Of a stretch of 64,000 bases of DNA, positions 8,084 through 64,000 are shown in pieces. Source of the stretch: Pseudomonadota bacterium (GTDB lineage Bacteria > Bdellovibrionota_B > Oligoflexia > Silvanigrellales > Silvanigrellaceae); contig JBDLRP010000026.1 in the NCBI GenBank assembly GCA_039799905.1, positions 64,001 through 128,000 of the forward strand. Reading direction: 5' to 3'. The notes beneath the pieces are model-generated. The model saw only the letters and a list, made by a program, of their open reading frames with translations. It had not been told where the DNA came from and ran no database searches. Both the position numbers and the translations under genes were made by a program. Every line of letters starts with the position of its first letter. Positions within the stretch are counted from its first letter, which is position 1.

Positions 8084-10390
8084 TTAATTAATCTGACTAC
8101 GCGCCAGTCCGATAAGCCTCGCCAGCGCAGTGTGCCGCTTGAGGGCAACCTGCGTTCCGACAGCCTTTTTCATCGCCCACTCCTCGCCAATCACAAAGGC
8201 ATGCTTACTCGCACGGGTAATTGCGGTGTAAAAAAGATTGCGATCGAGCATTGAATAGTAGGCGCTGAACATCGGAATGATAGCCAGCGGGAATTCAGAA
8301 CCCTGCGATTTGTGGACTGTCATCGCGTAGCACAGACTCAGATCGTCGATATCCTCATCTTCAAGCCTGACGATTCGGTCATCGAACGCGACGTCCATTT
8401 CAACCTTCTTCTGCACAACGCGGATAGCGCGGACGAATCCAAGGTCGCCATTGAAGACGTCTTTGTCGTAGTTGTTGCGCGTTTGGATAACCTTGTCACC
8501 CACCCTAAAAATATCTGTTTCATCAACGACCACTTCATCCTTGTCGGGATGCGGAGGGTTGAGCTCCGCCTGCAGGAGCTTGTTGATTTTCTCTTGTCCT
8601 GCATCGCCGCGGCGCATCGGCACAAGAATCTGAACATCACGGATCGGATCGAGCCCGTACATCTGCGGGATGGTTTCCTTCAGCAACGGCAAAAGCAGCT
8701 CGGCGAAGGTTTGAATACTGCAAGGCAACAGCACGAGCGACTGCGGAGAAGCAAAGTGAGCAGTGCGGCTGACAAGACTGAACTCCGGCTTTGCTCCTTC
8801 GATGATCGAGCGGGCTGCTGTCGGAATTGGACTCTCACTCGACTGACGGAAAATCTTTGTCAGACGAGCAACCGGAACTTCACCCGAGGAAATCACATCG
8901 CGCAGACAATTGCCTGCGCCGACACTCGGAAGCTGATCAACGTCTCCAACCAAGATGAGCCGTGTCTGGGGCGCCATGGCCTCCAATAGGGTGTTAAACA
9001 GGTCAAGGCTCAGCATCGAGGCTTCGTCGACAATAACTACATCGACGTCCTTCAATGCACCTTCTCCGCCCTCCGAAGTACCACTGTCGTCCCCCTGCCC
9101 AATGCGCAACGTTTTGTGCAAGGTATAGGCTTGAGCCTCGATGGAGGCTGTCATGCGCTTTGCAGCAAGTCCCGTAGGAGCGCACAAAACGACAGTCCGT
9201 TTGAGGGCCTTCTGAATTCGATAAATAGCTTTAAGAACAAAAGTCTTTCCGCACCCTGGGCCGCCCGTCAGCACCATGAATCTTGAACCCACCGACATCT
9301 CTACGGCAGCAGCCTGTTCGGATGACAGTTTATTCCATGGAATATCCGGAACCAATTCTTCGAGAGTGATTTCACCAGCGCTGAATTTCTGTTCAAACGG
9401 ATCGTTGCCAAGACCAGCTTTGAAAAGAAGGCGCGCGCATTCGCCCGCCGTTGCGTTTTCCAAAGCAAAAACCTCAGGAAGATAAAATAGCGGCTGGGCT
9501 GATTTCTCATCGCTTCCCGCAGCTTCCGGCAGACGAAGAATGAAGCTCTGCACACCCTTTTCGCGATTGTCTTTGTAAATCGCACGCAGTTCCAAGAGCA
9601 ACATTTCAAAGGTGAAACGCGGGTCGCGCTTGGCACCGAGTACATCACGTGCGCCTTCAATAAGCACATCACGCGGCAAACAACAGTGGCCGTCGTCGTG
9701 GGCTCTTTCGAGGGTGAAAACAAAGGCGGCTTCAAGACGAAAACGCGAGAGCGGATCAATTCCCAATTTCAAAGCAATGGCATCGGCACGCAAAAAACCG
9801 ACGTTGCGAAAATCAGAGATCAGCCGATAGGGGTTCTCTTTGAGCAATCGGATGGCGTCCGATCCGTAGCGCTCATAAATCCGGTTCGCAAAATTGGGGG
9901 GAATGTTGTGTTCGTGCAAAAAAACCATGATCGCGCGATAGACTTCGTCGCCTGTAATCAACGAAATCACCTGCTCAGCCTTGTCTCGTTTGCCTTTGAA
10001 AAAAGCAAACACTTTTTCCTTCTGGTTTTTGCAGACGTCCACCAGCTCATCGATGGTTCTGACATCCAAGGCCTCAAGAAATTTCTTGGCAGTGATCTCG
10101 CCGACGCCCTTCACGTTGTTCACTAGAAAGGGAATCACGCCGGTGAGCGTCGGTGGGCGCAGCGGCTCACTGTAGATCACCTGAAAGGTTTCACCGTACT
10201 TGGGTGACGTCGCCCAGTCGCCAAAGAGTTTGTACTGCTGCTGGGAATCGAACTTTCCAACGGTCAGGCCCTTGCCGCTGGCACGAAAGCGTTTGGCTGA
10301 CTTAGAATCAACGAATTCGGCAACGACAAAGGCTCCGTCTTGAGACGCGAAAATGACCTTGGACAAAAGTGCGGTCAGCTCAACAGACAC
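8084..10390 (-). CDS. recD2: ATP-dependent RecD-like DNA helicase
   Basis: HhH region (KGVGEITAKK, ENPYRL), TGGPGCGKT, VDEASM, GDVDQLPSVGAG, TVHKSQGSEF, YTAITRA. Confidence 0.93.
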   Translation of the reverse strand: MSVELTALLSKVIFASQDGAFVVAEFVDSKSAKRFRASGKGLTVGKFDSQQQYKLFGDWATSPKYGETFQVIYSEPLRPPTLTGVIPFLVNNVKGVGEITAKKFLEALDVRTIDELVDVCKNQKEKVFAFFKGKRDKAEQVISLITGDEVYRAIMVFLHEHNIPPNFANRIYERYGSDAIRLLKENPYRLISDFRNVGFLRADAIALKLGIDPLSRFRLEAAFVFTLERAHDDGHCCLPRDVLIEGARDVLGAKRDPRFTFEMLLLELRAIYKDNREKGVQSFILRLPEAAGSDEKSAQPLFYLPEVFALENATAGECARLLFKAGLGNDPFEQKFSAGEITLEELVPDIPWNKLSSEQAAAVEMSVGSRFMVLTGGPGCGKTFVLKAIYRIQKALKRTVVLCAPTGLAAKRMTASIEAQAYTLHKTLRIGQGDDSGTSEGGEGALKDVDVVIVDEASMLSLDLFNTLLEAMAPQTRLILVGDVDQLPSVGAGNCLRDVISSGEVPVARLTKIFRQSSESPIPTAARSIIEGAKPEFSLVSRTAHFASPQSLVLLPCSIQTFAELLLPLLKETIPQMYGLDPIRDVQILVPMRRGDAGQEKINKLLQAELNPPHPDKDEVVVDETDIFRVGDKVIQTRNNYDKDVFNGDLGFVRAIRVVQKKVEMDVAFDDRIVRLEDEDIDDLSLCYAMTVHKSQGSEFPLAIIPMFSAYYSMLDRNLFYTAITRASKHAFVIGEEWAMKKAVGTQVALKRHTALARLIGLARSQIN

Positions 10391-10459
10391 GATGGGTTCC
10401 CCTTTTTCAGGAGGGGAGCTTGCACTCGATCTGAAACTATGGCAACAACGGGGTCGCGT

Positions 10460-10534
10460 CGGGGCTTAGCGCAGTGGTAGCGCATCTGTTTTGGGAGCAG
10501 AGGGTCGTGAGTTCGAATCCCACAGCCCCGACCA
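10460..10534 (+). tRNA. tRNA-Pro (anticodon TGG)
   Basis: Acceptor stem CGGGGCT/AGCCCCG, D arm GCGC-AGTGGTA-GCGC, anticodon loop ttTGGga, TTCGAAT T loop, encoded CCA. Confidence 0.96.
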
Positions 10535-10541
10535 TCTTTCT

Positions 10542-10570
10542 AAAAAGCCGGTGAGAACCGGCTTTTTTTT
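10542..10570 (+). terminator. Intrinsic terminator, likely bidirectional
   Basis: aaaaagccggt-gaga-accggctttttttt hairpin with U tract, between convergent units. Confidence 0.88.
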
Positions 10571-10672
10571 ATTTACCTTTGCCAGTTTTCGAACTTTTTT
10601 AAACCCCTTGTCGCTCGGATATAAAGTCAGCCAACGCAGGCTGAAAAGCAGACATCTTGAAAAATTGCCTAC

Positions 10673-11533
10673 TCATTGGGCATTTCCAGTTAACAAGCCA
10701 ATCTTCTCGGCAAACTGCCGCACATCGGTCACACTCTGCACCAGTGGATCTGAGGAGTTTTTCATGGCCGTCATGTAGGACCAATACATCGCGTCCCACT
10801 CCACGCCACATTGCTTCTGTTGGCCGTAGGCGCACCGCCCCTTGCCCACATGCTGTTTGACAGTCCACGTAAAACCCGGAGTCGTGCAGGGATTGGCGCT
10901 GCCAGGTGACCTGCAGTTGCCTGTCAGCCATTTACAATTGTTGTCGCGCTCGTTGGTCCACCACCACAAAGTGGACGTCCAATCCGGTCCGCCTTTGAGG
11001 CCCCAAATACCAATTCCCTTGCCGTTCGAATCCTGAGCCCACGAGTACCAATCCCCATACACAAGAACCTGAAAGACGCCCGTACACGTCGCGCTTCCGC
11101 AATAGCCTTTGCGGTAAAGGTCGCTTCCCGACCATTTTCTTTTGCCAACCTCAGCCCACGGAAATCCTCCCAACGAAGTCTGGTAGGTTTCATAGTCGGC
11201 AATGGTGGCAAAAAACGCGAGCGGATGGATGTTGCTGTCAACCATGTTGCGCAACATAATGGTGACTCGCTGCGCGAACGTTTCGGCGGCAGCAGTGCCC
11301 TGCACACCATTCTTGAAGTTCTGTGCACGCTCTGTAATCCGCGTCAGAATGGGCATCGACACCCGCACAAAATCTGGCATTGCCGCCTCGCGACGCAACT
11401 CCTGCCCTGAGCTGGACGATGGGCATCCGGTGGTCGTTGGAGCGGAATCAGTGCGCGCCACCGGTTTGCAAGCAGACAAAGAGCAAATCGACAAACCGAC
11501 AAGTGCAGCCAGCAGGAATTTAATCATCAGCAT
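10673..11533 (-). CDS. Cys/Trp-rich lipoprotein, possible lysozyme-like (GH19-like) fold
   Basis: LSAC lipobox. AFFATIADYET, GVFQV and TSTLWWW resemble GH19 motifs in the same order. Confidence 0.6.
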   Translation of the reverse strand: MLMIKFLLAALVGLSICSLSACKPVARTDSAPTTTGCPSSSSGQELRREAAMPDFVRVSMPILTRITERAQNFKNGVQGTAAAETFAQRVTIMLRNMVDSNIHPLAFFATIADYETYQTSLGGFPWAEVGKRKWSGSDLYRKGYCGSATCTGVFQVLVYGDWYSWAQDSNGKGIGIWGLKGGPDWTSTLWWWTNERDNNCKWLTGNCRSPGSANPCTTPGFTWTVKQHVGKGRCAYGQQKQCGVEWDAMYWSYMTAMKNSSDPLVQSVTDVRQFAEKIGLLTGNAQ

Positions 11534-11688
11534 CTCCGCAAGACGTGAATCTGGATTGAGCTCGTATTCGCAGAATAGACGCGGATGGCGGAGGAATGAA
11601 TCTCCAACTCTTGACGCAGCTTTCATGATCTATAAAATTCCATAGATTCCGTGCACTTGCATAAAATTCAGACACTTGAATCAGGATT

Positions 11689-12348
11689 ATGGGAGGTCAC
11701 ATCATGACGGCAGAAGGAAGCAATGAAACCAACAATGAATCAGGGAAGTGGGACGTCATTTTTGGTCTGACCCTGTCCATTTTCGCGGCCATCCTTGCCA
11801 TCAACGAACTCGGCGGTGGCAAATTCGGTGACGACGAGATTCAGCTCGGCAACGAAAAAACCAAATCTTACATGTGGTACCAAAGCAAAAGTATCAAAGA
11901 AAGCCTCACCAAGGGACAGGTCGACCTGCTGCAGGTCCTGGGCGACTCAGGGGCCATTGCAGCAGACAAGGCCGCCGCGATGGCAACCCTCAAAGACAAA
12001 CTCAAAGAGGAAGTGGTCCGCTACAAAAAAGAAAAAGACGAAATTCTCCGGGGCTCAAAAGCCGTTGGTCCGGAAAATTACGCTCAGGACGTCGACGGCA
12101 AAATGGGTGTCGTGGTTGGCGCCAAAGAAATCGAAGATTTGCAGACCAGGCTCAGTGAATCGGGCGACAAGTTCGACTTGGCTACTTTATTTTTGCAAAT
12201 CAGCCTCGTGCTTGGCGCCATCGGTCTCATCGCCAAAAGCCTCAAAGTCAGGCTCTATTTCCTCGGCGGGCTTATATCACTCGGACTCACGGGCTCGGTT
12301 TTTTGCGTGCTGGCATACAGAATGGCTTTTGCCGCCTCGGGCGGATGA
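11689..12348 (+). CDS. DUF4337-like membrane protein
   Basis: One N-terminal TM, WYQSKSIK motif, coiled region, two C-terminal TMs with LFLQISLVL. Confidence 0.7.
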   Translation: MGGHIMTAEGSNETNNESGKWDVIFGLTLSIFAAILAINELGGGKFGDDEIQLGNEKTKSYMWYQSKSIKESLTKGQVDLLQVLGDSGAIAADKAAAMATLKDKLKEEVVRYKKEKDEILRGSKAVGPENYAQDVDGKMGVVVGAKEIEDLQTRLSESGDKFDLATLFLQISLVLGAIGLIAKSLKVRLYFLGGLISLGLTGSVFCVLAYRMAFAASGG

Positions 12349-26975: not shown

Positions 26976-28274
26976 GTGGAATTTGCAGATAATAGAATCA
27001 ATTCGCGATTGGGTAAAATTGAAAAGGCATTCTCGATTCTGCCCAGCAGCGGCAATGTGGTTCTTTCGATGGCTGCTGCAGAACCCGAGTTGTTTTTTGA
27101 GAATTTGCATTTATCTGCCCGTCGTCATCAGGGTTTGCATATCCACTGCGCAAACCCGACGAAGCCTTATCCATGCTTCACGGACGCAGGTCTCACAGAA
27201 CACTTTCACTTCAACGTCATGTTCCTGACCGCAGCAGTTCGAAACCTGCAAGGTCACAACCTCGTGCACTATGTGCCACAGCATCTTTCGCGCTGGTCGC
27301 AAAATTTGACCCGTCGACGGAACATTGATGTTTTTTGGGGAACGTGCAGCCTTCCGACCGCCAACGGATTCGTAAGTCTGGGTGTGAACGCCTGCTACGA
27401 ACCTGAGCTACTGCGCAAGGCGCGCATTGTGATTCTTGAAATTAACCCCCATATGCCCGTGGTGTATGGCGACACGTTCGTGCCCGTCGATCAGGTCGAT
27501 TTATTTCTGCAGAGTCAGCGTCCGCTGCCCGTGCTGGCCTGCGAAAAAACAGACCCTGTCGACAGGCAGATTGCTGCCTATATTTCCGACTTGGTACCTG
27601 ATGGAGCGACAATCCAGCTCGGCATTGGTGGTATTCCAAATGCCGTGGGCGAATGCCTGACCCACAAAAAACACCTTGGCGTGCACACAGAATTGTTCAC
27701 CGAATCTATGCGCACGCTTTATGAGCACGGTGTGATCGACGGGTCCGAAAAAACACTCTGGCCGCGTAAGATGATTTCGACATTCGTATATGGCTCGGCG
27801 GATCTTTATAAATTTGTTGGTGAGAATCCGGCTGTCGAATTGCATCCCGCCTCGATCGTCAATGACCCGAACCGTATCTGCAGAAACCACCGAATGATCT
27901 CAATCAACACGGCCGTGGAGATCGACATCACAGGACAGGTCTGCTCTGAATCGGTGGGGCACAAAGAACTGAGCGGTGTCGGCGGAGCGACGGATACGCA
28001 TATCGGCGCACAACGCTCCCAAGGCGGACGCGGAATTATCGCTTTGCGTTCGACCACAAACGACGGAAAAATTTCAAAAATCGCCTTCGAACTGAAAGCC
28101 GGAGCCAAAGTTTCCATCAGCCGCAACGACATCGATACCGTGGTCAGCGAATATGGTGTGGCCGAGCTGATTGGTTTGTCGGTCGCGGAACGCGCCCAAG
28201 CTCTCATTCGTATTGCTCATCCGGATATGCGCGACGAGCTGCTCTTCAATGCACAAAGGGCTGGCTACATCTGA
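26976..28274 (+). CDS. Acetyl-CoA hydrolase/transferase family (4-hydroxybutyrate CoA-transferase-like)
   Basis: DGATIQLGIGGIPNAV, LGVHTE, EIDITGQV, VVSEYGVAEL, IAHPD. Confidence 0.92.
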   Translation: MEFADNRINSRLGKIEKAFSILPSSGNVVLSMAAAEPELFFENLHLSARRHQGLHIHCANPTKPYPCFTDAGLTEHFHFNVMFLTAAVRNLQGHNLVHYVPQHLSRWSQNLTRRRNIDVFWGTCSLPTANGFVSLGVNACYEPELLRKARIVILEINPHMPVVYGDTFVPVDQVDLFLQSQRPLPVLACEKTDPVDRQIAAYISDLVPDGATIQLGIGGIPNAVGECLTHKKHLGVHTELFTESMRTLYEHGVIDGSEKTLWPRKMISTFVYGSADLYKFVGENPAVELHPASIVNDPNRICRNHRMISINTAVEIDITGQVCSESVGHKELSGVGGATDTHIGAQRSQGGRGIIALRSTTNDGKISKIAFELKAGAKVSISRNDIDTVVSEYGVAELIGLSVAERAQALIRIAHPDMRDELLFNAQRAGYI

Positions 28275-28284
28275 GTTTTTGTCC

Positions 28285-28313
28285 TTGACCGGCATGGTAT
28301 CTCTCCGTATTGT
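28285..28313 (+). promoter_or_regulatory. Sigma-70-like promoter
   Basis: TTGACC-N17-TATTGT upstream of the ATG at 28338. Confidence 0.5.
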
Positions 28314-28337
28314 CCGCCGAAATTCAAGGGGAGTACT

Positions 28338-29120
28338 ATGAAACGACGCACAGTGTCCGTTGCAGTCTTGTCTCTGGCCCTCATGGCATCCTGCGGAACG
28401 CCGACCGCCACCACTTCACGCACAGTTTCGACCATCCAACGCGGCGATATTATAATCGAAACAATTGAAACATCGACAAATCCGCAGATCTCTGCAGCCG
28501 AAGCGGAAGCGGAAATCCGCGCTGCTCTCTCGCAGCAGAGCATCAGCGCAACTCAGGGCGAACTGACGAATTCCACGGTCGGCGGCCGTGTGCTCGAAAA
28601 CACCTCGACAGACAAAATTGACACCATCGTGCGCATCGTGAATGCGTTCGCGGATTTGGCAAAGCGGGTCGTTGCACCCGACACGCCCCTGATGAAAGGC
28701 AACATCATCGCGGAGGCGCGCCCCGCCGGATTGGAGCCGATGGCTCTGCAAAACAGCAAGTACTCGGGGAAGTCCTACAAAAAACTTTTCAAGAGCCTGC
28801 TGGGCTTCAAGCTCGTCGAAGTCGAATACAAAATCGCCTATTCATACGGAGCTGATAACAACGGCAAAGGACAGTACATTCCTCACGTTCTTTTCACTCC
28901 GATGAAAATTGTCCTCGATCCGCTTTGGCACCTCGAGGCCGACTCCCTCTCGCTCGCTCCCAGAAATTGCGGTACCATTGAGGACCCCATCGCGGCATTG
29001 GAGTTCAATCTCGCCTTCAAGGCGAAAGGTCTGACCGGCACAATTATGGCCACAGATACTTTCTCATTGAATGCTCAAACGGGTGAGCTTGTTGCCGACG
29101 GGAGGGATTTTCAGCCCTAG
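28338..29120 (+). CDS. Hypothetical lipoprotein
   Basis: GGGGAG RBS, MASC lipobox, beta-rich C-terminal half. Confidence 0.75.
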   Translation: MKRRTVSVAVLSLALMASCGTPTATTSRTVSTIQRGDIIIETIETSTNPQISAAEAEAEIRAALSQQSISATQGELTNSTVGGRVLENTSTDKIDTIVRIVNAFADLAKRVVAPDTPLMKGNIIAEARPAGLEPMALQNSKYSGKSYKKLFKSLLGFKLVEVEYKIAYSYGADNNGKGQYIPHVLFTPMKIVLDPLWHLEADSLSLAPRNCGTIEDPIAALEFNLAFKAKGLTGTIMATDTFSLNAQTGELVADGRDFQP

Positions 29121-29150: not shown

Positions 29151-30347
29151 ATGAACAATCCTACGGAAGGCAGCCCGTCCGCAACGACTCTCAGCGCGGG
29201 TATCATCCCCCGCACATCTTCATCCGAAATTGTTGAAATGAGTTGGTTCGCACCCATCTGCTCGGATGACTTCGAGTATCTGGGAGTTCCAGAATCCCGC
29301 CTGAAAAGTTCTTGGGCTCATGTTTCCAAAATTGCTCTGGAGGCGGAGCGGCAGGGATTCGACAACATGCTTTGTCCGAGCAGCTATCAGGTCGGACAGG
29401 ACACACTCACCTTCGCAGCTGCTTTGGCTCCACAACTGAAAAAAATGAGTCTGCTGGCTGCCATCCGCTGTGGCGAAGTGCATCCTGCGATGCTCGCACG
29501 CACACTTGCCACGCTCGATCACATGCTCGAGGGGCGGCTCACGGTCAACATCATTTCATCCGACCTTCCCGGCGAAACACTCGACTCGAAAACTCGCTAC
29601 GCAAAATCGCGTGAAGTCTGTCAGATTCTTCGCCAGTGCTGGACTCGCGAGGAAATCAATTTCGAAGGCGAATTCTACAAGCTGAAATTGCCAGCGGCGC
29701 CGTGCAAGCCCTATCAGCAAAACGGCGGGCCGCTGTTGTATTTCGGCGGACTCTCTCCCGACGCGCTGGACCTGTGTGCTCGCGAGTGTGATGTTTTCCT
29801 GATGTGGCCAGAAACCGAAGATCGTCTGCGTGCCCACATGCAAGAGATGACAACACGTGCCGAAACCTATGGCAGAAGGGTCGATTTTGGCCTGCGCGTA
29901 CACATGATTGTCCGCGAAACAGAGCAAGAAGCCCGCGCCGCTGCGAGAAAACTCGTTTCAAAACTTAATGACGACAAGGGCAACGAGATCCGCAGCCGCG
30001 CACTCGACTCCAAATCGTTCGGTGTTGCCATGCAGGCGGAAATGCGCACTCTGGCTGATGACGACGGATTTGCAGAAGACCTGCTTTGGACCGGTGTCGG
30101 ACGCGCGCGCTCGGGGTGCGGTTGTGCGCTGGTCGGCACGCCCGATCAAATTGTCAGCAAACTAAACCGCTACATCGACATGGGGATCCGCTCGTTTGTT
30201 CTTTCGGGATACCCGCACTTCGATGAATGCGGATTGGTCGGAAAATACGTTTTGCCGCGGTTCCGCAGAGGCAAGCTGGCGGAAATCCAAGGCCGCATTC
30301 CCACATCACTTCCCAACACGCCGCTCGGCGCCGGAGTCCGTCAATGA
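29151..30347 (+). CDS. smoC: LLM-class flavin-dependent monooxygenase, probable sulfoquinovose monooxygenase (SmoC/SquD-like)
   Basis: SsuD-family motifs ([39 protein letters not shown]). Segments [37 protein letters not shown] and TPLG.G.R match my recollection of SmoC. Confidence 0.85.
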
Positions 30348-31234
30348 TGAATACTCAACTCTCTCCCATGGTCTTTGGTGCATGGCGTCTGGCTGACAAC
30401 AAATCCGAAGCCACGCCCGATGCGGTTGCCCGCAAAATTCTCATGGCACTCGAACACGGTATCACGACCTTCGACCATGCCGACATCTACGGAAACTACG
30501 AGTGCGAAAATCTATTCGGTCAGGCGATGGCAAAGCACTCCATTCCGCGCGGTAAAATTCAGCTCGTAACCAAATGCGGCATCAAGCTTGTCTCGGAAAA
30601 CCGTCCAGAGCATGCGCTGAAGACCTACGAAACCACGCGGGCACATATCGTCCGTTCGGTCGAAACGTCGCTTAAAAACCTGCGCACCGATGTCATCGAC
30701 CTTTTGCTGATTCACCGCCCCGATCCGCTGATGAATCCGTCTGAGGTCAACGAAACGTTCAGCGACCTGCACAAGCAGGGCAAAGTCAAATCATTTGGCG
30801 TTTCCAACTTTTCGCACTCGCAGGTGCGCATGCTGCAAAGCAGGCTGAGCATGCCGATCGTCACCAATCAAATCGAATTTTCACTGTTGCACACTGACCC
30901 CATGCACAACGGTCAGCTCGACCAATGCGTTGAACTGAACATGATTCCGATGGCGTGGTCACCGCTTGCTGGCGGCCGGCTTTTCAGCCAGAACGACGCA
31001 CGCTCAACTCGAGTGCGGGAGTGCCTCACCGAGCTGGCGAAAAAATATCGTGTCACAGCTCCCGAGACGATCGCATATGCATGGCTGCTCAAACATCCAT
31101 CCAAAGTTGTTCCCGTGCTGGGGACAGGTCAGGAAGACAGACTGAAAGCTGCCGTAAACGCGCTTAAGGTAGAGCTTGAGCACGATGACTGGTTCCGTCT
31201 GCTCAAAGCATCGGTCGGTCACGATGTGCCGTAA
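30344..31234 (+). CDS. smoB: Aldo/keto reductase, probable 6-oxo-glucose reductase (SmoB/YdhF-like)
   Basis: [48 protein letters not shown] overlap with the monooxygenase. Confidence 0.8.
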
Positions 31235-32513
31235 GGCTGGTTTGGGGCGCTTTGCTTTGGCACTCGTGGTGCTGGCAGCCGCCTGCACAAAAAACAACGA
31301 GAAACCGGTGCTGAAAGTTCTGACTTTCCGCGACAGGCAGTCGTCCGCTCTGCGCGAAGCCATTCCCGCATTCGAGGCGGAGCACAAAGTCCGCGTGCAA
31401 TTTGATGACATTCCGGCATCGACCGTCGCAACAAAAATGATGACCGACCTCGCAGCAGGCGGGACTTATGACGTCTATGCCGTCGATGAACCGTTCATCC
31501 CTCAATTTCATGAGGCACTTTTGCCGCTGGCGCAGTGGCCCGATGCACCTGCAGCTGATGAGGTTGGGAAATTCGAGGGCAAGGCCGTCGAGGCTGCAAC
31601 TGTCAATGGCGCGCTGATCGGTTTGCCGGTCAACGGAAATGTCTACCAATATGTTTATCGTAAAGATCTGTTCGAATCGCCGGATGAAAAGTTGGCCTTT
31701 GAAAAACGCTTTCAGCGCGTGCTGAAACCAGCCGAAAATTTATCGGAACTGGTTCAACTGGCGCAGTTCTTTCATCGTCCTCCCAAGCTTTACGGCTTCG
31801 CGCCTTTCACCAAAATGTCTGAGGGAACGACTGTCGAATTCCTATGGCTTCTTGCCGCTGCGGGCCATCCACTCGGGCATCGGTCACCACCGCCCGACAC
31901 AACTGTCATTCATTCGGCTCTTACCACCTATGCACAACTGATGCAGACAGCTCCGAAAGCGGCACGTGCGTGGCACCACACAGAGCGGATGTCGGCCTAC
32001 GCCAAAGGCAAAGTGGCGCAGATGATGACGTGGAACAGCTTCTTTTTCGACCTCGAAGATGAATACAAGTCGCTCGTCGTCGGTCGCACGGGCTACGCAA
32101 AATCACCCGGCTCCACGGCTACGAGTCTGGCCGGAACGTGGATTGCCGGTGTGCGTAAAAACTCACAGCAGACAGCTGCCGCGAGTGCGTTCATCCGTTG
32201 GTGGACCTCGCGCACAGTCAATGAAACTCTGGTGCGCAAAGGACTCAGCAGCGCGCGTTCCGATGTGCTGACAAACCCGACTCTTTCGCGTCAATTCCCT
32301 TGGCTCGCAACAACTCACATCAACTTCGGCAATGCCTTTCTGCGGCCGCGCCACAAACAGTACCGTGCGGCATCTGATGAAGTCAGCAAAGCGTTCACCC
32401 GCTGGGTGGCGGGTCAGACGTCCGATCAAGAGGCAGCGCAATATCTACGCAGTGCTCTCGAACGAATGGATGAACTGGCCATGGGCCGCACAGCGCGAAA
32501 GGAATCACGCTGA
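31224..32513 (+). CDS. Sugar ABC transporter substrate-binding lipoprotein
   Basis: AAAC lipobox, GLP....YVYRKDLF and GKVAQM features of CUT1 binding proteins. Confidence 0.88.
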   Translation: MCRKAGLGRFALALVVLAAACTKNNEKPVLKVLTFRDRQSSALREAIPAFEAEHKVRVQFDDIPASTVATKMMTDLAAGGTYDVYAVDEPFIPQFHEALLPLAQWPDAPAADEVGKFEGKAVEAATVNGALIGLPVNGNVYQYVYRKDLFESPDEKLAFEKRFQRVLKPAENLSELVQLAQFFHRPPKLYGFAPFTKMSEGTTVEFLWLLAAAGHPLGHRSPPPDTTVIHSALTTYAQLMQTAPKAARAWHHTERMSAYAKGKVAQMMTWNSFFFDLEDEYKSLVVGRTGYAKSPGSTATSLAGTWIAGVRKNSQQTAAASAFIRWWTSRTVNETLVRKGLSSARSDVLTNPTLSRQFPWLATTHINFGNAFLRPRHKQYRAASDEVSKAFTRWVAGQTSDQEAAQYLRSALERMDELAMGRTARKESR

Positions 32514-33403
32514 TGCTCAGTGCAAAATCGCAGCGCTCGCTGCTTGTCTTCCTTTTCCCGGGCTGTGCACTTCTCACTTTGCTGATTGGCTGGCCTGTAC
32601 TTGAAAGTGCCGTCAGTTCGCTGAGTGTCTCTGCAAACACAGCCGGACAGAGCGATACCTTTGCCGGAATCGCTCATTACAAGACGCTGCTCTCGCAAAG
32701 TTCATTTTGGAATGCGCTGTGGCTGGCGGCTCTTTTTACAATCACGACCACTTCATTAGAACTCGTCATCGGCCTAGCTGTCGCGCTGTTTCTTTATTTT
32801 CAGCGCAGCCTGCCGCGTGTCGTCGAAATTCTTCTTATTCTTCCCATGTTCATTTTGCCAGTCGTCTCGGGGCTGACTTTTCGTTATATTTATGATCCCA
32901 ACGACGGGCCGCTGTCTTTTATTTTTGATCGGCTGGGCTATGAACCCGCGGCTCCGCTGGCCGATTCCTTTTGGGCTTTTTGGTCGATCGTTGTGCAGGA
33001 CATTTGGAGAATGTGGCCATTTTTATTCCTGATCATTTATGCAGGCCTCAAGGCTCTGCCGCGCTCCGCTCAGGAAGCGGCGCGCATGGACGGCGCAACG
33101 ACAGCTCAGATCATCCGATATGTCCTTCTTCCTGCGTTGCGCCCGACACTGGGTATTGCCGCTGGTTTGAAAATCATGGAGTCATTGAAGGTCTTCACGG
33201 AAGTTTACGTCATGACGGGCGGCGGCCCTGGTGAATCGACCTCGCTGCTCTCACTGTTCGTTGTGAAGCAGGCCTTCCATTTCTTTCAAGTGGGGCCTGC
33301 ATCTGCCGCATCTATTCTTCTGCTCGCACTGGGAATGAGTTTGGCTTGGACGGTCACCCGTATGCAAAACCGCCCAACTGTCGCAGGAGGTGCGAGCCGA
33401 TGA
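32513..33403 (+). CDS. Carbohydrate ABC transporter permease
   Basis: EAARMDGA loop, MTGGGPGEST, about six TMs. Confidence 0.92.
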   Translation: MLSAKSQRSLLVFLFPGCALLTLLIGWPVLESAVSSLSVSANTAGQSDTFAGIAHYKTLLSQSSFWNALWLAALFTITTTSLELVIGLAVALFLYFQRSLPRVVEILLILPMFILPVVSGLTFRYIYDPNDGPLSFIFDRLGYEPAAPLADSFWAFWSIVVQDIWRMWPFLFLIIYAGLKALPRSAQEAARMDGATTAQIIRYVLLPALRPTLGIAAGLKIMESLKVFTEVYVMTGGGPGESTSLLSLFVVKQAFHFFQVGPASAASILLLALGMSLAWTVTRMQNRPTVAGGASR

Positions 33404-34233
33404 TGGATGCACAAAAGCGCCCTTTGCCGAGTTATGCCAAGGCTATTGTCGCGTTCTTGCTTTTTGTTCAGCTGGCGCCAATTCTCATCATCATTCAGAC
33501 GGCATTCAAAACACCACGCAGTCTGCTCGAGAGCGGCTCATTTTCGCTGGACGGCTGGACGCTGAAAAACTTTCACCGCATTTTTGTCGAGCAGAGCCTC
33601 GCACCCGACTTGCTCAACTCAATCGGCATCGCATTTGGTTCGATGCTGCTTTCCGTCAGCTGCGGCTCGCTCATGGCCTTTGCACTCACACGCTGGCAAG
33701 GGCCGGCTCGCAAGCATCTGCTGACGACACTACTGGTGGCTCGGCTGCTGCCTCCGGTCGCGCTGGCCTTGCCGCTTTTTCTCGTGCTGCGCGGCTTGGG
33801 ATTGCACGACACGCACGGCGGGTTGATTCTGGCGCACACGGCGCTGAACTTTCCGCTCGCAACCTGGATTTTGATGCCATTTATGGACTCCGTGCCGCGC
33901 GCGCTTGAAGAAGCTGCGTCGCTGGACGGTGCAAGCCGTGCGCAAACATTTCTCCATGTGGTGCTGCCCGTCAACAAGACTGGATTGGTTGTCGCCGCCT
34001 TGTTTTGTTTTTTGATGAGTTGGAACGATTTCCTGTTCTCGCTCATACTCGCCGGATCGGCCGTGAAAACTGCTCCGCTGACACTCAACGGATACGTCAC
34101 GGGCTTTGGCACTGAGTGGGGCCCGCTGTGCGCGGGGGCGTGCGTCTTGCTTCTTCCTGTTTTTGCGCTGTCATTCAAACTTCATCAACACATGATTGCC
34201 TCGCCCACGCAGGGCGGAGTCAAGGGAGCGTAA
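33400..34233 (+). CDS. Carbohydrate ABC transporter permease
   Basis: LEEAASLDGA loop, SWNDFLFS. Confidence 0.92.
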   Translation: MMDAQKRPLPSYAKAIVAFLLFVQLAPILIIIQTAFKTPRSLLESGSFSLDGWTLKNFHRIFVEQSLAPDLLNSIGIAFGSMLLSVSCGSLMAFALTRWQGPARKHLLTTLLVARLLPPVALALPLFLVLRGLGLHDTHGGLILAHTALNFPLATWILMPFMDSVPRALEEAASLDGASRAQTFLHVVLPVNKTGLVVAALFCFLMSWNDFLFSLILAGSAVKTAPLTLNGYVTGFGTEWGPLCAGACVLLLPVFALSFKLHQHMIASPTQGGVKGA

Positions 34234-34234
34234 T

Positions 34235-36346
34235 ATGAGACTCTCAGAAGAATCTGCACAGGACATCAATTTTGCATTGACTCCCGAATGGCCGAGCCTG
34301 ACGGCGCGGGCACGCGGAGCCGTGCGCATGACTCCAGTGACAGGGTGTCGGTTGCTGCCTCAGCGAGAGCGCAATCAGTTCGTTCAGTTTGAATTGCAAT
34401 TCAAGGACAGCAGCAAAAGCAAACTGTACATCGGCGCGCTCGACACTACGCCGGCAGCCTGGGTGATTTGGATGGGTGAACAACCTCGCCGCCATGATCT
34501 TCTCAACACGGTTGTTTCGAACGAAATCAGGGTGGAGGAATCACGCACGGGCTGGACCCTGCGCTCGGCGTTTGCAACAGTGGACATCGACCAGTCATCA
34601 GCAGCGCTGTGCATCAGAAATTCACTCGGCCAATGTGTATGGCAATCGGTCGGCAAAGATCTTTTTGTCGGTGATGTGCCAATGAGCTTTGCTGCCTTCA
34701 GGCACGCAGACGGTTTCGGCATGACCTTTGATTTTGCAGACACGCAACAGATCTGGGGCGGCGGTGAACAGTTCGGCCCAACAAATTTGCGCGGACGAAT
34801 TTATGACGTAATGAACAGCGACGCTCTCGGCGTCAACGGCCACCTGCGCTACCAAAGCACTCCGTTCTTCATCACCGAACGTGGCCATTCATTTGCAACA
34901 CTGCAGTGTGAACCGGCACGCATCGATTTCGGCTCCCGCCGTCATGACATGACGACCTTCTCATCCGATGGTCAAACGCTCGGGCTTTATTTGGCGATGC
35001 CGACCAATGCGAAACAGGCTATTGAGAATTGGCGTGCTCTGATGGGTGGCGTCAGCAGTGTTCCGGAGTGGAGTTTTGCGCTCTGGTTGTCGCGCTGTTT
35101 TTACAAAGACGAAAAAGAATTGCGCTCAGTGATTGAAGGCAACCGCACGCACAAGCTGGGAGCAGGTGTCATAAACCTCGACGCGCGTGCGTGGATGCGT
35201 GCACAAACGCGCACGGATTTTGTTTGGGACACATCGCGCTGGAGTCCTTATCAGACATTTATTCCTTGGCTCAGGGAGCAGGGTTTTCATGTTTGCCTCT
35301 GGGAGAATCCCTACGTTTCTTCGGCAACGGAAAAACTCTACGAAGAAGGCGCTCGCCTCGGCTACTTTGCCAAGACCAAATCGGGAGATGTTTATCCCTA
35401 TCAGTGGGTCCCAACCGGTCTGGAAGGTTTTCCGCAGCCGCCCGTTGCGGGATTGGTCGACTTCACAAATCCAAAAGCCTGTGACTGGTGGAAAGAACAG
35501 CACCGTCCGTTTTTGCGTGCCGGTGTGACGTGCTTCAAAACAGACTTTGGCGAGGAAATTCCGCACGACGCTGTGTTTGCCGATGGAAGCACTGGCCTTC
35601 AACTGCGCAACGTATACTCAGATTTATACAACCTGTGCGTCATGGAAGTGATGCGCGAAGAGTGCGGCGAGGAAGGAATTCTTTGGGCACGATCGGGCTA
35701 TGCAAAGATGGGTAAAACTCCCGTCAAATGGGCAGGCGACAGCCAGACCTCGTGGACAGCACTGCGCGCATCGCTGCGCGGTGGACTTTCGCAGGCTGTG
35801 GGTGGAGCTGTGTTCTGGTCGCATGACATCGGCGGATTTTACGGACCCAGTCCGGATGCCGAGTTGTTCACTCGATGGTCTCAGGTCGGTCTGTGGGGAA
35901 GCCATGCACGCATGCACGGCACCTCGCCGCGCGAACCTTGGGAGTTCGGTGCAACCGCCATGCAACAAGTGCGCAAGGACGTTGCTCTGCGCAATGCCCT
36001 GCAGTCTTATTGGGTGGCGTGCGCCGCGGAGTGTGTACGCGAGCAAAAGAGCTTTGTGCGACCACTGTGGATGCTCAATCCGCAGGATGCACTCAGCTGG
36101 ACCATCGAAGATCAGTTCCTCGCAGGTTCCGATGACGTTGTGGTTGCGCCCTATCTCACTGCCGAAGGCGGACGTCGCGTTTACCTTCCTTCAGGAGAAT
36201 GGCTTTGCCTCAACAACGGACGCACTTTGGCGGGGCACTCGCTCGAGCAGATTGACCGCTGGAGTGAATGTCCTGTCTTCGTGCGGACCAGCTCGCGCTG
36301 GCTCAGCCTGTTCAAAAACTCTTTTGCGCAGATTTATGGGCGCTGA
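34235..36346 (+). CDS. GH31 alpha-glycosidase (YicI-like), candidate sulfoquinovosidase
   Basis: WGGGEQF, PEWSFALWLS, WENPYV, VDFTNP.A..WW, FKTDFGE nucleophile, WAGD acid/base, WSHDIGGF, REPW. Confidence 0.9.
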   Translation: MRLSEESAQDINFALTPEWPSLTARARGAVRMTPVTGCRLLPQRERNQFVQFELQFKDSSKSKLYIGALDTTPAAWVIWMGEQPRRHDLLNTVVSNEIRVEESRTGWTLRSAFATVDIDQSSAALCIRNSLGQCVWQSVGKDLFVGDVPMSFAAFRHADGFGMTFDFADTQQIWGGGEQFGPTNLRGRIYDVMNSDALGVNGHLRYQSTPFFITERGHSFATLQCEPARIDFGSRRHDMTTFSSDGQTLGLYLAMPTNAKQAIENWRALMGGVSSVPEWSFALWLSRCFYKDEKELRSVIEGNRTHKLGAGVINLDARAWMRAQTRTDFVWDTSRWSPYQTFIPWLREQGFHVCLWENPYVSSATEKLYEEGARLGYFAKTKSGDVYPYQWVPTGLEGFPQPPVAGLVDFTNPKACDWWKEQHRPFLRAGVTCFKTDFGEEIPHDAVFADGSTGLQLRNVYSDLYNLCVMEVMREECGEEGILWARSGYAKMGKTPVKWAGDSQTSWTALRASLRGGLSQAVGGAVFWSHDIGGFYGPSPDAELFTRWSQVGLWGSHARMHGTSPREPWEFGATAMQQVRKDVALRNALQSYWVACAAECVREQKSFVRPLWMLNPQDALSWTIEDQFLAGSDDVVVAPYLTAEGGRRVYLPSGEWLCLNNGRTLAGHSLEQIDRWSECPVFVRTSSRWLSLFKNSFAQIYGR

Positions 36347-55875: not shown

Positions 55876-57000
55876 ATGGCCAAGCTGGTCATCAAGGATC
55901 TGAACAAGGTCTACGAAAACAAAGTTGAGGTTCTGAAAAACGTCAACATCGAGGCCGCGCACGGAGAGTTTCTTGTCCTTGTCGGGCCATCAGGATGCGG
56001 CAAATCGACACTCCTGCGGATGATTGCCGGGCTCGAAGATGTGACGTCGGGTAACATCCAAATCGGCGATCGGGTCGTGAATGAACTCGCCCCCGCTGAA
56101 CGTGACATTGCAATGGTATTTCAGGACTACGCGCTCTATCCGCACATGACAGTGCGCGAAAATTTGAGCTTCGGACTGCGCATCAAGAAAAGACCGCAAG
56201 ACGAAATCGATGAGCGCGTTCAAACTGCAGGCAAGATGCTCAACATCGACCATCTTCTCGATCGCAAACCAAGCCAACTTTCGGGCGGACAACGCCAACG
56301 CGTGGCCATTGGCCGTGCTATCGTCCGCAAGCCCGCTCTGTTTTTGTTTGACGAGCCGCTCTCCAACCTCGATGCTCAGCTGCGCAGCCAGACCCGCATC
56401 GAGCTTGCTGCACTGCATCAAAAAGTCGGCGCCACGGTTGTCTATGTGACACACGATCAGGTGGAAGCCATGACGCTGGCAGACCGCATCGCAGTGCTCA
56501 ACAAGGGCCGCGTGCAACAACTCGGCTCTCCGCTTGAGCTCTACAATAACCCAGTGAACACCTTCGTTGCGGCATTTATCGGTAACCCCAGCATGAATTT
56601 CTTCAAAGGACAGCTGGACGTTTCGGGCGGACGCAAAACCTTTACATTCAACGGTCTGAGTTTCGACCTGTCGGATGCGCCGACCCCGAAAACCTCGGGC
56701 AACTACACTCTTGGTCTGCGTCCCGAATCACTTAAAGTTCTGGCCAAAGAAGGACGTGAGTCGGAAGGGCGTACCGATTGCACGCCAAAAGTATTGCTCG
56801 TGGAACCGCACGGGCATGAGACTCATCTCGTGGCCACGATTGGGGGTCAGCAGGTGATCATTCGGTCAGCAAACCCCAAACGCCTGCAAGTCATGGAAAC
56901 AGCCGTACGCGGCTCGGAACTTGCAACCACTATTGATCGCAAAGCACTGCATTGGTTCGACTCCACGGAAGAAGGCGGACGCGTGAATGAATTGGTTTAA
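55876..57000 (+). CDS. Sugar ABC transporter ATP-binding protein (MalK/MsmX/UgpC type)
   Basis: [46 protein letters not shown]. Confidence 0.96.
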
Positions 57001-60000
57001 CAATACTCTCGAGCATAAGTCAGGGTTCAGATTTTCAATTATTGTCGCGACACTGATCGCAGCCCTGAGCGGCTGCCGATCGTCGTCGGCACCGATCTCG
57101 GGTGCGCGGCTGAGTCAGCTGGCTGCTACGAGCGAGCCCACGTATCTTTGGGGGCAGCTCGCGACAGAAGCCGAACCCTCTGCAGAATTGCAGCGACTGC
57201 GCCGAAATCAGCGCGGCAATGTCAACAACAACGCAGAACTTCCGCAACTTGAAATTCAAACAAAAATGATTGGGGAAAGCGGTGAGCAGGAACTGAGCTT
57301 TCGTGCGCACCAAGGAGCGAAAGTATTCTATACGCTCGACGGCTCCATTCCAATTGTCACCGGCATGCGTCCGCAGGGAAGCACGAAAACTTTCAATGCC
57401 AATGAAAGAATCTCGCAGCCGACGCTGGTCCGCGCGATCGCCGTAGATCAACGCGGTGTGGCCTCTTATTTGCGTTCGGCAATCGTTACGCCCAAACGTG
57501 CCGATTTCAAGCTGAGCAAACTGCCGCCGCAGAGCAAACAGGTGAAGGCTGTTTACGTCACCGGCTCATTTCGCGGCTGGTCGACCGGATTCGACGACAA
57601 CTATCGCCTGACACCGCAGACGGATGGCTCATTTCAGCGCACGGTTTTGCTCGATCGCACCCATGAGGTCCTCTATAAGTTTGTCGTCCGCTATGAAGAC
57701 GAAACGTTCTCTTGGCTCGCCGACGGCAGTCAGCCACAAAGTGGATTAGCACCCTACAACAACAACATTCTTCTCTCGCCGCGGGCACAGCTCGCCAAGT
57801 CGTTTATCGGCAAGAAAGATGGCCTGCTTGATGAGGCGGCCATTGACCTGAGCATGCAGTCGGTGGCTGCGATTGATGCAGGTGAGCGTGTTGTCAGATT
57901 CAAACTGAAAATGTTCGAAGGCGACGCTGAGAGTGTGTCTGTCGCGTTCTCGGATGGTCAGCAGATGGCGCTCGCTCCGCAATCTTCCTACACCGTCGAT
58001 TCGCTGCGTTACACCGTGTACTCAGGCTTGCTGACGCTGCCCGAGAGTTCGATCCGTTCGTCTTTCGTGGTGAAAGCCAAAGACAACGAAAATGTATTCC
58101 GTATCGGCCGCGCGGGAATCATCACCGGCGACCCGTTCTCCTCTGCGCAGCGTCCAAACACCTTCGATTTCAACTACAACTCCGTTACACAACAAATCAA
58201 CGGGGAAGACCTCTACCAAGTGCCGCTGTGGTCGGTCGATGCGACTTGGTATCAAATTTTTCCAGAACGTTTCCGTAACGGAGATGTTTCGAACGACGTC
58301 CTCGGCGAGTTTCCGACGGAATGGGAAAAGAGCCGTCCTGCGCTTTCGCGCCTCGACAGAACGATTTCTCCATGGACAGGAAGCTGGTTCAGCTTCACTC
58401 CAGTCGAAAAGAATATGGAGCGCATCGTCAGGCAAACCCAGCCTGAGCTCGACCCGCGCGAGATTCAACGACAGATTATTTTTACCCGCCGCTATGGCGG
58501 CGACCTGCGCGGTGTGAAGGACGCCCTTCCCTATTTGAAGGCGCTGGGCATCACCGGAGTGTACTTCAATCCGGTTTTCGACTCGGATTCGCTGCATCGC
58601 TACGACACTAAAGACTACCGCCATGTCGACCCGAAACTTGGGCCAATGACGGTTGGCGCAGACGGCAAACCCGATCTGTACGAAGACGACAAAAAGCTGC
58701 TTGCCGCTGAAAAACTCGATGACCCGTCGACCTGGAAATACACACGCGCCGACAAGGAATTCATGGCGCTGGTCACCGAACTGCAGGCAAATGGCATCCG
58801 TGTTGTGATTGACGGAGTTTTCAACCATTCGGCCACAGACGGGCCGCTGGTTGAGGACATTGCACGGCGTGGCCGCGCGTCTCCGTACTACGACTGGTTT
58901 GCCACTTCGTACGAAGGTGAGGCGAATTATTATGCACGCTCCTGCCAGCTGTCCGAATTCTACCCCGACGCCGGCGAGTTTCCATTTGCAAGCAAAATCC
59001 GCTTTGACTCGTGGGCCGGCTTTTGTCCGCTGATCAATCACCGTCAAGGCTTTCCAAACGGCGCTTTGCATCCCGGATTGCAGAAACATATTTTCGCAGT
59101 CGTGGATCGCTGGTTTGAACCAAAGAACATCGACGGAATTCAGTTCAACGGCGTGGACGGAATTCGCCTCGACGTGTACGCAGACGTCCCAGTGTCTTTT
59201 TGGCGGCTTTTCAGAAAGCATCTGAAGAGCGTCAAGCGTGACGCTTTGATCATCGCCGAAGACTGGTACGACGGCTTTGACATGCTGCAGGGCGACCAAG
59301 CCGACGGCATCATGAACTATCGCGCGCGCACTCTGGCCGAGAGCTGGTTCATCAACCCCGACCAGCGCAACAAGTTCACACCCAGCGCCGCGCAGAACTT
59401 CCTTGAGACTCGTCTGAACGGTTACCGCGAGCACATCAAACATGCGCTCTGGACGATGCTCGACAGTCACGACACAGACCGCTTCCTGAGCAAAACTATC
59501 TGGCAAAACCGCTGGCTTTCAACCCGCCCGCAGGATGGCAACAGCTGGGACAACGATACGGTCAACAAACCTGACCGTGGTGCGCTGTATTCCAACGACA
59601 AACCCGGTTTGCTGGAAAAAGAGTTTTACAAGGGGATGGTCGCATTTCAAATGGCTTACGTCGGAGCACCAGTCGTATATTACGGTGCTGAAATTGGCAT
59701 GTGGGGAGCGGACGATCCGACCTGCCGCAAACCGATGGTCTGGGACGACCTGAGCGCCGGACAATTCGAAACACAGTGCGTCACGCACCCCGGTGCATGG
59801 TGCCTCGAAAACACTGGCGTGAAGTTTTCTTCTGAAGCCGACAAAGACATGCTCGCCGTCCACAAGCGCATCATCAAAGCGCGCAACGAACATCCCGCAT
59901 TGCGCAGAGGCAAGTTGAACTCATCGCTGTCGCTTGTTGTCAACGGACAAGCCGTTTCGGTCGGCAGTCCGAGTGCCGACTGGACTTGGCTGTGGGGTTT

Positions 60001-60214
60001 CGAACGCGCCTTCGGCGACTCGAACTTCGCATACTTCCTCTCCAACGAACTGATGAGCAAAGATGCCCAAACAGTTTTGTTGCAAACGCGCTTTACTCCG
60101 GAAAAAGAAGCAGTTGAGCTTGTCTCGGGACGTTCATACCCTGTAGATGAAAGAGGTCGCATCAGTGTGACGATCGGGCGCGAACGGGCTGTGCTGTTCG
60201 TCCAACCCCGGTAA
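56987..60214 (+). CDS. Multidomain GH13 alpha-amylase/neopullulanase-like lipoprotein
   Basis: LSGC lipobox, FYTLDGS.P, VYVTGSF.GW...YKF, YQIFPERF.NGD, DGVFNH, GIRLDV, AEDW, LDSHD. Confidence 0.92.
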   Translation: MNWFNNTLEHKSGFRFSIIVATLIAALSGCRSSSAPISGARLSQLAATSEPTYLWGQLATEAEPSAELQRLRRNQRGNVNNNAELPQLEIQTKMIGESGEQELSFRAHQGAKVFYTLDGSIPIVTGMRPQGSTKTFNANERISQPTLVRAIAVDQRGVASYLRSAIVTPKRADFKLSKLPPQSKQVKAVYVTGSFRGWSTGFDDNYRLTPQTDGSFQRTVLLDRTHEVLYKFVVRYEDETFSWLADGSQPQSGLAPYNNNILLSPRAQLAKSFIGKKDGLLDEAAIDLSMQSVAAIDAGERVVRFKLKMFEGDAESVSVAFSDGQQMALAPQSSYTVDSLRYTVYSGLLTLPESSIRSSFVVKAKDNENVFRIGRAGIITGDPFSSAQRPNTFDFNYNSVTQQINGEDLYQVPLWSVDATWYQIFPERFRNGDVSNDVLGEFPTEWEKSRPALSRLDRTISPWTGSWFSFTPVEKNMERIVRQTQPELDPREIQRQIIFTRRYGGDLRGVKDALPYLKALGITGVYFNPVFDSDSLHRYDTKDYRHVDPKLGPMTVGADGKPDLYEDDKKLLAAEKLDDPSTWKYTRADKEFMALVTELQANGIRVVIDGVFNHSATDGPLVEDIARRGRASPYYDWFATSYEGEANYYARSCQLSEFYPDAGEFPFASKIRFDSWAGFCPLINHRQGFPNGALHPGLQKHIFAVVDRWFEPKNIDGIQFNGVDGIRLDVYADVPVSFWRLFRKHLKSVKRDALIIAEDWYDGFDMLQGDQADGIMNYRARTLAESWFINPDQRNKFTPSAAQNFLETRLNGYREHIKHALWTMLDSHDTDRFLSKTIWQNRWLSTRPQDGNSWDNDTVNKPDRGALYSNDKPGLLEKEFYKGMVAFQMAYVGAPVVYYGAEIGMWGADDPTCRKPMVWDDLSAGQFETQCVTHPGAWCLENTGVKFSSEADKDMLAVHKRIIKARNEHPALRRGKLNSSLSLVVNGQAVSVGSPSADWTWLWGFERAFGDSNFAYFLSNELMSKDAQTVLLQTRFTPEKEAVELVSGRSYPVDERGRISVTIGRERAVLFVQPR

Positions 60215-63804: not shown

Positions 63805-63828
63805 GACGTGCTCACTCCCTGTGCTCGA

Positions 63829-63999: not shown

Positions 64000-64000
64000 G

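Follow-up and report, generated by a model that had tools for sequence, protein, structure and literature searches.

Which enzyme releases sulfoquinovose (SQ) from its glycosides in a bacterium whose SQ operon ends in a glycosidase that is not of the YihQ type? The question is raised by a 64,000-nucleotide stretch of DNA from a member of the Silvanigrellaceae (contig JBDLRP010000026.1, positions 64,001 to 128,000; hereafter the window), in which a gene of glycoside hydrolase family 31 (GH31), here called P0001 (34235..36346, + strand, 703 aa), is the last gene of an operon for SQ desulfonation. A first-pass annotation of the window had read P0001 as a new type of sulfoquinovosidase (SQase) occupying the slot of SmoI. 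Overall, we conclude that P0001 is very probably an SQase. We also consider it likely that the account as a whole is right, i.e. that an SqgH-type SQase serves an operon of the SQ monooxygenase (sulfo-SMO) pathway and shares its origin with SqgH, the GH31 SQase of Alteromonas macleodii. Judged from its sequence, P0001 is predicted to work like SqgH, yet it falls outside the published SqgH clade, GH31_13 and GH188.

Scaffold and specificity loop of P0001

Translation of P0001 gave an intact open reading frame (ORF) with zero internal stops and no signal peptide by eye. All three GH31 domains were present (PF13802, PF01055 with 237 bits, and PF21365), giving an N-terminal beta-sandwich, a (beta/alpha)8 catalytic domain, a C-terminal domain and two catalytic Asp residues, D437 (codon 35543) and D502 (35738..35740), which were invariant across the aligned homologues. 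The annotation had placed D437 exactly, in a FKTDFGE nucleophile motif of the YicI type, and the best solved-structure matches by sequence were B. thetaiotaomicron 5F7C (284 bits) and E. coli YicI (267 bits; 32% identity), with YihQ at 104 bits. The AlphaFold model (predicted local distance difference test score 93) likewise returned YicI as the top Foldseek match (template modelling score 0.81-0.82), with YihQ-type enzymes lower (0.69-0.70). The placement in subfamily 3 (GH31_3) is indirect, through these nearest solved relatives and the scoring of SqgH itself as subfamily 3. The best NCBIfam model, alpha-xylosidase (PRK10658), stayed below its cut-off (386 of 606 bits) and the D-C-F-W...W loop of YicI differs, while the GH31_13 SQase model (YihQ/SmoI; PRK10426) reached 191 of 553 bits and the Q/E-R-W-Y motif was absent; as a GH31 protein, P0001 is also distinct from the GH188 enzyme SqgA, which has an oxidoreductase fold dependent on nicotinamide adenine dinucleotide (NAD).

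The specificity loop (N314-D332; 35174..35230), where D316 of NLDARAWMRAQTRTDFVWD is encoded at 35180, again as annotated, carries R318 (35186), W320 and R326 (35210). YicI reads D306-C-F-W309 followed by W315, whereas P0001 reads D-A-R-A-W, one residue longer, with R326 at the W315 position. An Ala-Arg for Cys-Phe replacement plus a second Arg had been proposed for this site; the second Arg stands, since R326 replaces W315, but the first change is no simple swap and includes a one-residue insertion. Cys307 and Phe308 of YicI exclude C6 substituents, a point for which a literature search on Cys307, Phe308 and Phe277 retrieved no source. P0001 also differs from YicI in a lengthened 391-403 loop (W391-F399-P403; 35405..35443), which SqgH-like and Dictyoglomus-type proteins also have and which is shorter and different in YicI and YihQ, and in having about 90 fewer C-terminal residues. 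Alignment bore out that the YihQ loop QDW.G.R...R..W, beginning at Q288 in E. coli YihQ (L106), is missing from P0001. A register match between R326 and YihQ R301 was rejected, as the two lie two positions apart when anchored on the downstream conserved Trp. Across 48 aligned homologues (39-100% identity), picked from the 67 top-scoring of 120 matches listed, D316, A317, R318, W320, M321, R326, T327, D328 and F329 were invariant in every case, so the loop is not a product of chance.

Residue correspondence and probable shared ancestry with SqgH

The annotation had counted only YihQ-type GH31 enzymes and GH188 among described SQases, which is outdated by the characterisation of SqgH, a GH31_3-type SQase with the same loop (PMC12780224). 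AmSqgH (MASE_18025, WP_014951134.1) of A. macleodii is a proven GH31 sulfoquinovosidase (Ma et al., Nat Commun, Dec 2025; PMC12780224), with a kcat/KM of 9170 per M per s on para-nitrophenyl-SQ (pNP-SQ) and no activity on pNP-Xyl or pNP-Glc. It is without a Q/E-RWY motif, falls formally into subfamily 3 and was described as convergent with GH31_13, so that the literature already contains a second route to SQase activity within GH31. The reported mutants retained 1.4% (R302G), 1.5% (K412E), 2.5% (F513G), 9.6% (D480A) and 74% (T377A) of wild-type activity, and a D-G-R-A-W-x5-R loop occurs in all 10 listed clade members (PMC12780224). In the supplements of that paper, a mutant labelled D414A keeps 51% and the listed primers seem to leave Asp414 and to alter Ile411, so the SqgH nucleophile may not have been tested as labelled.

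No named Alteromonas protein appeared among the best 120 matches of a protein search with nine SqgH-like queries, and a 688-aa orthologue with the same numbering (L071), encoded beside an SqoD dioxygenase, was reached via genome searches. Its pairwise alignment with P0001 (34% identity over 537 aa) was used to transfer the AmSqgH numbering, and R302, K412, D414, D480 and F513 correspond to R326, K435, D437, D502 and F535 of P0001 (K435 and the predicted nucleophile D437 at 35537..35545; D502, the predicted acid/base, as above; F535 at 35837..35839). Of the four binding residues that were named for AmSqgH, P0001 therefore keeps three, together with the catalytic Asp pair. The fourth, T377, aligns to P400 or Q401, a loss that we regard as minor because T377A remains largely active. 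The loop Arg residues are likely sulfonate binders, as the annotation had suggested, R326 by analogy with R302. SqgH and P0001 further have in common a GH31_3-type scaffold, the lack of a Q/E-RWY motif, a D-x-R-A-W-x5-R loop, a similar size (688 and 703 aa, respectively), with neither having the C-terminal extension of YicI, and a location beside SQ desulfonation genes, but P0001 has Ala in place of Gly after the loop Asp. While the 10 published SqgH members are marine Gammaproteobacteria with the SQ dioxygenase pathway (sulfo-SDO; PMC12780224), the P0001 branch comes from freshwater Bdellovibrionota and one genome of Myxococcota, and is accompanied by sulfo-SMO genes and an ATP-binding cassette (ABC) transporter.

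Among 374 distinct sequences, the R326 position held Arg in 88 of 88 proteins with the D-A-R-x-W loop (DARxW) and in 150 of 150 SqgH-like proteins. Of the 115 remaining GH31_3-like proteins, only 3% have Arg there. W391, F399, P403, S362 and R335 were likewise common to the DARxW proteins, the SqgH-like proteins and 12 Dictyoglomus-type proteins. R318 was retained in all three groups, including the Dictyoglomus-type proteins, in which position 326 is Gln in all 12. Because the loop served to define the groups, the 100% retention of R318 and the insertion are partly circular; the other shared positions are not. These data bear on a narrower version of the SQase reading, in which R326 alone binds the sulfonate, R318 is structural and the proposed Ala-Arg pocket is wrong in detail. 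R302 is the only binding Arg named in PMC12780224, and no mutant of R294, the equivalent of R318, was found in the supplements searched. The retention of R318 where R326 is missing, with the circularity just mentioned, and the presence of all four fetched Dictyoglomus-type loci in sulfo-transaldolase-like clusters argue the other way, and we hold a purely structural R318 to be possible, though somewhat doubtful.

Trees were built with loop residues 314-332 left out and with no GH31_6 sequence knowingly included. A quick IQ-TREE tree (LG+C20; 55 of 107 representatives) joined the DARxW, Dictyoglomus-type and SqgH-like groups with 83 in the Shimodaira-Hasegawa-like approximate likelihood ratio test, and an LG+G4 tree of 34 of those 55 rows joined the same three (83/76). 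All three trees contained the D[AG]RxW clade including SqgH; the support labels of the FastTree tree, which may have shifted on rerooting, were left unused. The DARxW branch itself received 100/100, on a long stem (0.8-0.95 changes per site). Approximately unbiased (AU) tests rejected a grouping of DARxW with core YicI (p 0.039), with YihQ (p 0.029) and with 15 non-motif rows (p 0.034), the last of which were chosen after the tree was seen. P0001 thus lies outside the marine gammaproteobacterial SqgH clade, on a sister branch linked to SmoC. With GH31_13 (E. coli YihQ, Agrobacterium SmoI), P0001 has in common the predicted reaction and a sulfonate-binding Arg in the same loop region, but at 23% identity, without QDW..R..W and with the Arg in a different register.

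The annotation had further proposed an independent origin of SQase activity. In this form, P0001 would have arisen separately from SqgH out of a YicI-like xylosidase and would be a third origin within GH31, and the long DARxW stem, the 83/76 support for the union with SqgH-like proteins and an identity to the SqgH orthologue (34%) close to that to YicI are compatible with it. P0001 and SqgH, however, have a one-residue insertion at the same place, an Arg six residues after the Trp and the lengthened W391-F399-P403 loop in common, and the AU tests reject the alternative groupings. A separate origin is therefore disfavoured, and we rate it as very improbable; the convergence with GH31_13 had already been published for SqgH. 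A single origin of P0001 and SqgH inside GH31_3 is favoured, not proven.

Operon and co-occurrence with sulfoquinovose genes

The annotation had proposed a check on whether homologues with the loop co-occur with sulfoglycolysis genes, and this was run on 134 loci with SmoC, SqoD and SftI as markers (those of the Embden-Meyerhof-Parnas and Entner-Doudoroff variants lay outside the test). The DARxW loop was present in 29 of the 134 loci, and SmoC was found in all 19 of these with at least 6 kb upstream and in one shorter locus, the other nine being cut short. None of the three markers was found in 61 loci with a YicI-type DCxW loop, in 26 with another loop or in 13 without the motif; with at least 6 kb upstream, the counts were 0 of 30, 0 of 12 and 0 of 3, respectively. 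Across 61 related genomes, all 17 with a P0001 match of at least 46% identity hold a SmoC orthologue, and no such match was found in the 42 genomes without SmoC. Conversely, 17 of 19 SmoC genomes hold a match. In one of the two others (G003) the contig ends inside permease 2, and the second (G044) carries in its place a YihQ-type GH31 that has the R..W motif, as expected if YihQ-type and P0001-type enzymes fill the same slot. SmoI occupies this slot in the smo cluster of Agrobacterium (PMC8795539), and the linkage to SmoC supports the view that in the DARxW loci it is filled by a likely SQase. The named relatives of P0001 are freshwater Silvanigrellaceae and one Myxococcota genome.

Two further loci were of note. 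In a metagenome locus (L125:1146-5967), the DARxW GH31 is divergent from SmoC and the reductase, which are encoded on the other strand, and no ABC binding protein was found in between, so the linkage outlasts rearrangement. A DARxW-bearing Myxococcota genome also holds a YihQ-like GH31 (L113; G064:C366) in which Gln replaces the sulfonate-binding Arg (QDW...SQLWWRW); judging by this residue, that enzyme may have lost or changed its SQ specificity.

P0001 is the last of six co-oriented genes on the + strand, which start at 29151 and are separated by gaps of at most one base. The first (29151..30347; 398 aa) encodes a flavin-dependent SQ monooxygenase orthologous to SmoC, as it scores 505 bits to 7OH2 (RoSmoC) and 494 bits to 7OLF (SmoC; PMC8795539); the alkanesulfonate monooxygenase SsuD was ruled out by its score of 197 bits. 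It is followed by an aldo-keto reductase of the YdhF/SmoB family (30344..31234; 296 aa), a likely 6-oxo-glucose reductase with 239 bits to SmoB (7BBY) and 43% identity to the reductase of a Rhizobium smo cluster. Its role is read from its context, because YdhF-type proteins score slightly higher (249-264 bits). The third gene (31224..32513) encodes an ABC solute-binding protein (SBP_bac_1) with a lipoprotein-like N-terminus by eye, presumed to bind SQ-glycerol. It is distant from SmoF (7NBZ ranks 4th of 26 at 35 bits) and closer, at 32-35% identity, to the binding protein of the Dictyoglomaceae-type SQ clusters. This similarity suggests that SQ-glycerol binders are of a second type as well and that the operon is a mosaic, in which a transporter/GH31 module was joined to SmoC/SmoB. 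Two ABC sugar permeases (32513..33403 and 33403..34233; both BPD_transp_1, with best NCBIfam models GlcT/UgpA and GlcU, respectively, below cut-off) precede P0001. The sulfo-SMO cluster of Agrobacterium tumefaciens (smoA-I; Sharma et al. 2022, PMC8795539) similarly combines SmoC, a SmoB-family reductase, an ABC transporter and a glycosidase; the P0001 operon differs in having no SmoA, GntR regulator or ATPase, in its binding protein and in an SqgH-like SQase instead of SmoI or GH188.

In the pathway that we propose, the ABC transporter would import SQ-glycerol, and P0001, a retaining alpha-sulfoquinovosidase that is probably cytoplasmic, would cleave it by the GH31 double displacement with D437 as nucleophile and D502 as acid/base. 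Retention via two catalytic Asp residues is the established GH31 mechanism. The C6 sulfonate would be gripped by R326, by analogy with R302, and probably by R318, aided by K435 and F535. SmoC would then use reduced flavin mononucleotide (FMNH2) and O2 to strip sulfite and leave 6-oxo-glucose, which the aldo-keto reductase would turn into glucose, as in the Agrobacterium pathway (PMC8795539).

An alternative explanation is that P0001 is a broad alpha-glucosidase/alpha-xylosidase, or acts on other anionic glycosides, and is kept in the smo operon of an organism that uses only free SQ. The YicI-like fold and nucleophile motif and the alpha-xylosidase model as best NCBIfam match, even if below cut-off, would fit such an enzyme, as would the five of eight alphaproteobacterial loci with a D-G-R-x-W loop (DGRxW) that show no SQ marker. 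On the other hand, every testable DARxW locus is linked to SmoC, and where YicI has Cys-Phe and Trp315, P0001 carries the Arg pattern of SqgH, an enzyme inactive on pNP-Xyl and pNP-Glc (PMC12780224). No other SQase candidate was found in the genome either, as P0001 is its only GH31 and one SqgA query gave no GH188 match. We therefore judge this alternative very improbable and retain P0001 as a predicted SQase.

Several observations nevertheless weigh against an SqgH-type SQase in a sulfo-SMO operon. The co-occurring loci are kin and represent, by our reading of the identities, roughly 7-8 independent lineages, so the counts are inflated, and the locus and genome sets overlap. Since K412 and F513 also occur without exception in the 115 other GH31_3-like proteins, they are no specificity markers, which leaves R326 as the informative match. 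The residue after R326 is Thr in P0001 and Phe in SqgH, and the identity to the SqgH orthologue (34%, 317 bits) is little above that to YicI (32%, 263 bits). The support for the clade of DARxW and SqgH is moderate (83; 83/76, the bootstrap coming from the LG+G4 tree of 34 rows). A SmoA-type flavin reductase was found neither in the operon nor in the genome (PF01613, 0 hits in an assembly 94% complete), nor, with a Rhizobium query, in any DARxW locus tested. Finally, recognisable SQ-pathway neighbours occur in only three of the eight alphaproteobacterial DGRxW loci, so the link between loop and SQ genes is tight for the DARxW branch and looser for the whole family.

Regarding the missing functions, four PF03358 matches lie elsewhere in the genome, one of which (G000:C7:14416-14841) is a candidate FMNH2 donor for SmoC; SqoD was not found in the genome. 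A MalK-type ABC ATPase (55876..57000, + strand) 19.5 kb downstream of the operon is a possible shared energiser and perhaps drives its transporter. Deeper-branching relatives (L014-L017, L126) carry an ATPase directly after the GH31, only 48-49% identical to the one at 55876-57000. The latter and a following 1075-aa ORF that looks amylase-like by eye together span 55876-60214, with further sugar permeases at 62962-64000 at the window end; this is read as a maltodextrin locus whose ATPase may be shared with the P0001 operon. Directly upstream of the operon (26976-29120) lie an acetyl-CoA hydrolase/transferase and a lipoprotein-like ORF of 260 aa that matches no Pfam or NCBIfam model; both are kept only in close relatives and missing from deeper branches. 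A promoter scan returned 4 sites versus 5.0 expected and was uninformative. Operon DNA (at least half its words) was detected in four further sequencing runs from three studies labelled freshwater, lagoon or aquatic, and no RNA run was listed among the runs holding it.

The wider family and possible freshwater sulfolipid use

Relatives beyond the DARxW branch extend the range of neighbouring pathways. A Dictyoglomaceae locus (L018:1003-14353) combines SuyAB-like genes, an aldehyde dehydrogenase, a transaldolase, a LarA-type racemase and an ABC transporter with a GH31 (9635-11899) that has a DGRAW loop and no Arg equivalent to R302, and one of its proteins has the SftI sulfoquinovose isomerase model, below cut-off, as its sole NCBIfam match. 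The same gene set was found in all four fetched loci of this type (L018, L020, L128, L129), with markers drawn from L018 itself. From its gene content, this looks like a sulfo-transaldolase cluster continuing to sulfite release in a thermophile, and its LarA-family racemase may invert sulfolactate for SuyAB. Among 401 genomes searched, an SqgH-like gene was detected in eight of Alphaproteobacteria, one with an adjacent SftI-like isomerase and two (L191 and L192) with an Entner-Doudoroff-like set. In these two, the SqgH-like GH31 adjoins an IlvD-type dehydratase, an aldose epimerase and an aldehyde dehydrogenase, and L191 also has an HpaI aldolase, a sugar dehydrogenase and a sulfolactate-dehydrogenase-like gene (the scan of L192 was partial); by its predicted genes, this cluster resembles a sulfo-Entner-Doudoroff pathway.

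A broader reading, for which we see about even chances, is that SqgH is one twig of an old cross-phylum SQase lineage within GH31_3, marked by the D-[AG]-R-x-W insertion. At least four pathways would depend on this lineage: in freshwater Silvanigrellaceae and Myxococcota sulfo-SMO, in Alteromonadaceae sulfo-SDO, in Dictyoglomaceae that of a sulfo-transaldolase-like cluster with SuyAB, and in Alphaproteobacteria that of SftI- or Entner-Doudoroff-like clusters. R318 is proposed as its common sulfonate anchor because the Dictyoglomus-type proteins are without the published Arg, and the Silvanigrellaceae would be overlooked consumers of algal sulfolipid, with a reductase-less smo operon and a binder unlike SmoF. 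In the literature searches, no paper linked sulfoquinovose to either Silvanigrellaceae or Dictyoglomus, and supplement file 2 of Ma et al. (PMC12780224) mentions neither. What is new is the branch, namely freshwater Bdellovibrionota with the monooxygenase pathway and with identities under survey thresholds.

SQase genes are used as pathway markers (PMC10755693), and a 2026 review used YihQ- and SqgA-type queries to screen aquatic genomes by BLASTp, with a minimum identity of 40%, and stated that the freshwater distribution of SQases in relation to SQ release has not been systematically characterised (PMC13436972). For the 88 DARxW proteins, the highest identities are 37% (SqgH orthologue) and 30% (YihQ), and none reaches 40%, so in surveys of this kind these freshwater bacteria would count as lacking the SQase step. 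As a natural experiment, the DARxW branch could also show which Arg of SqgH-type enzymes binds the sulfonate. By the proposed route, the freshwater bacterium studied here would free algal sulfoquinovose, remove its sulfur and use the remainder as glucose and, if the cross-phylum lineage is real, sulfolipid use by freshwater Silvanigrellaceae would be invisible to surveys at 40% identity.

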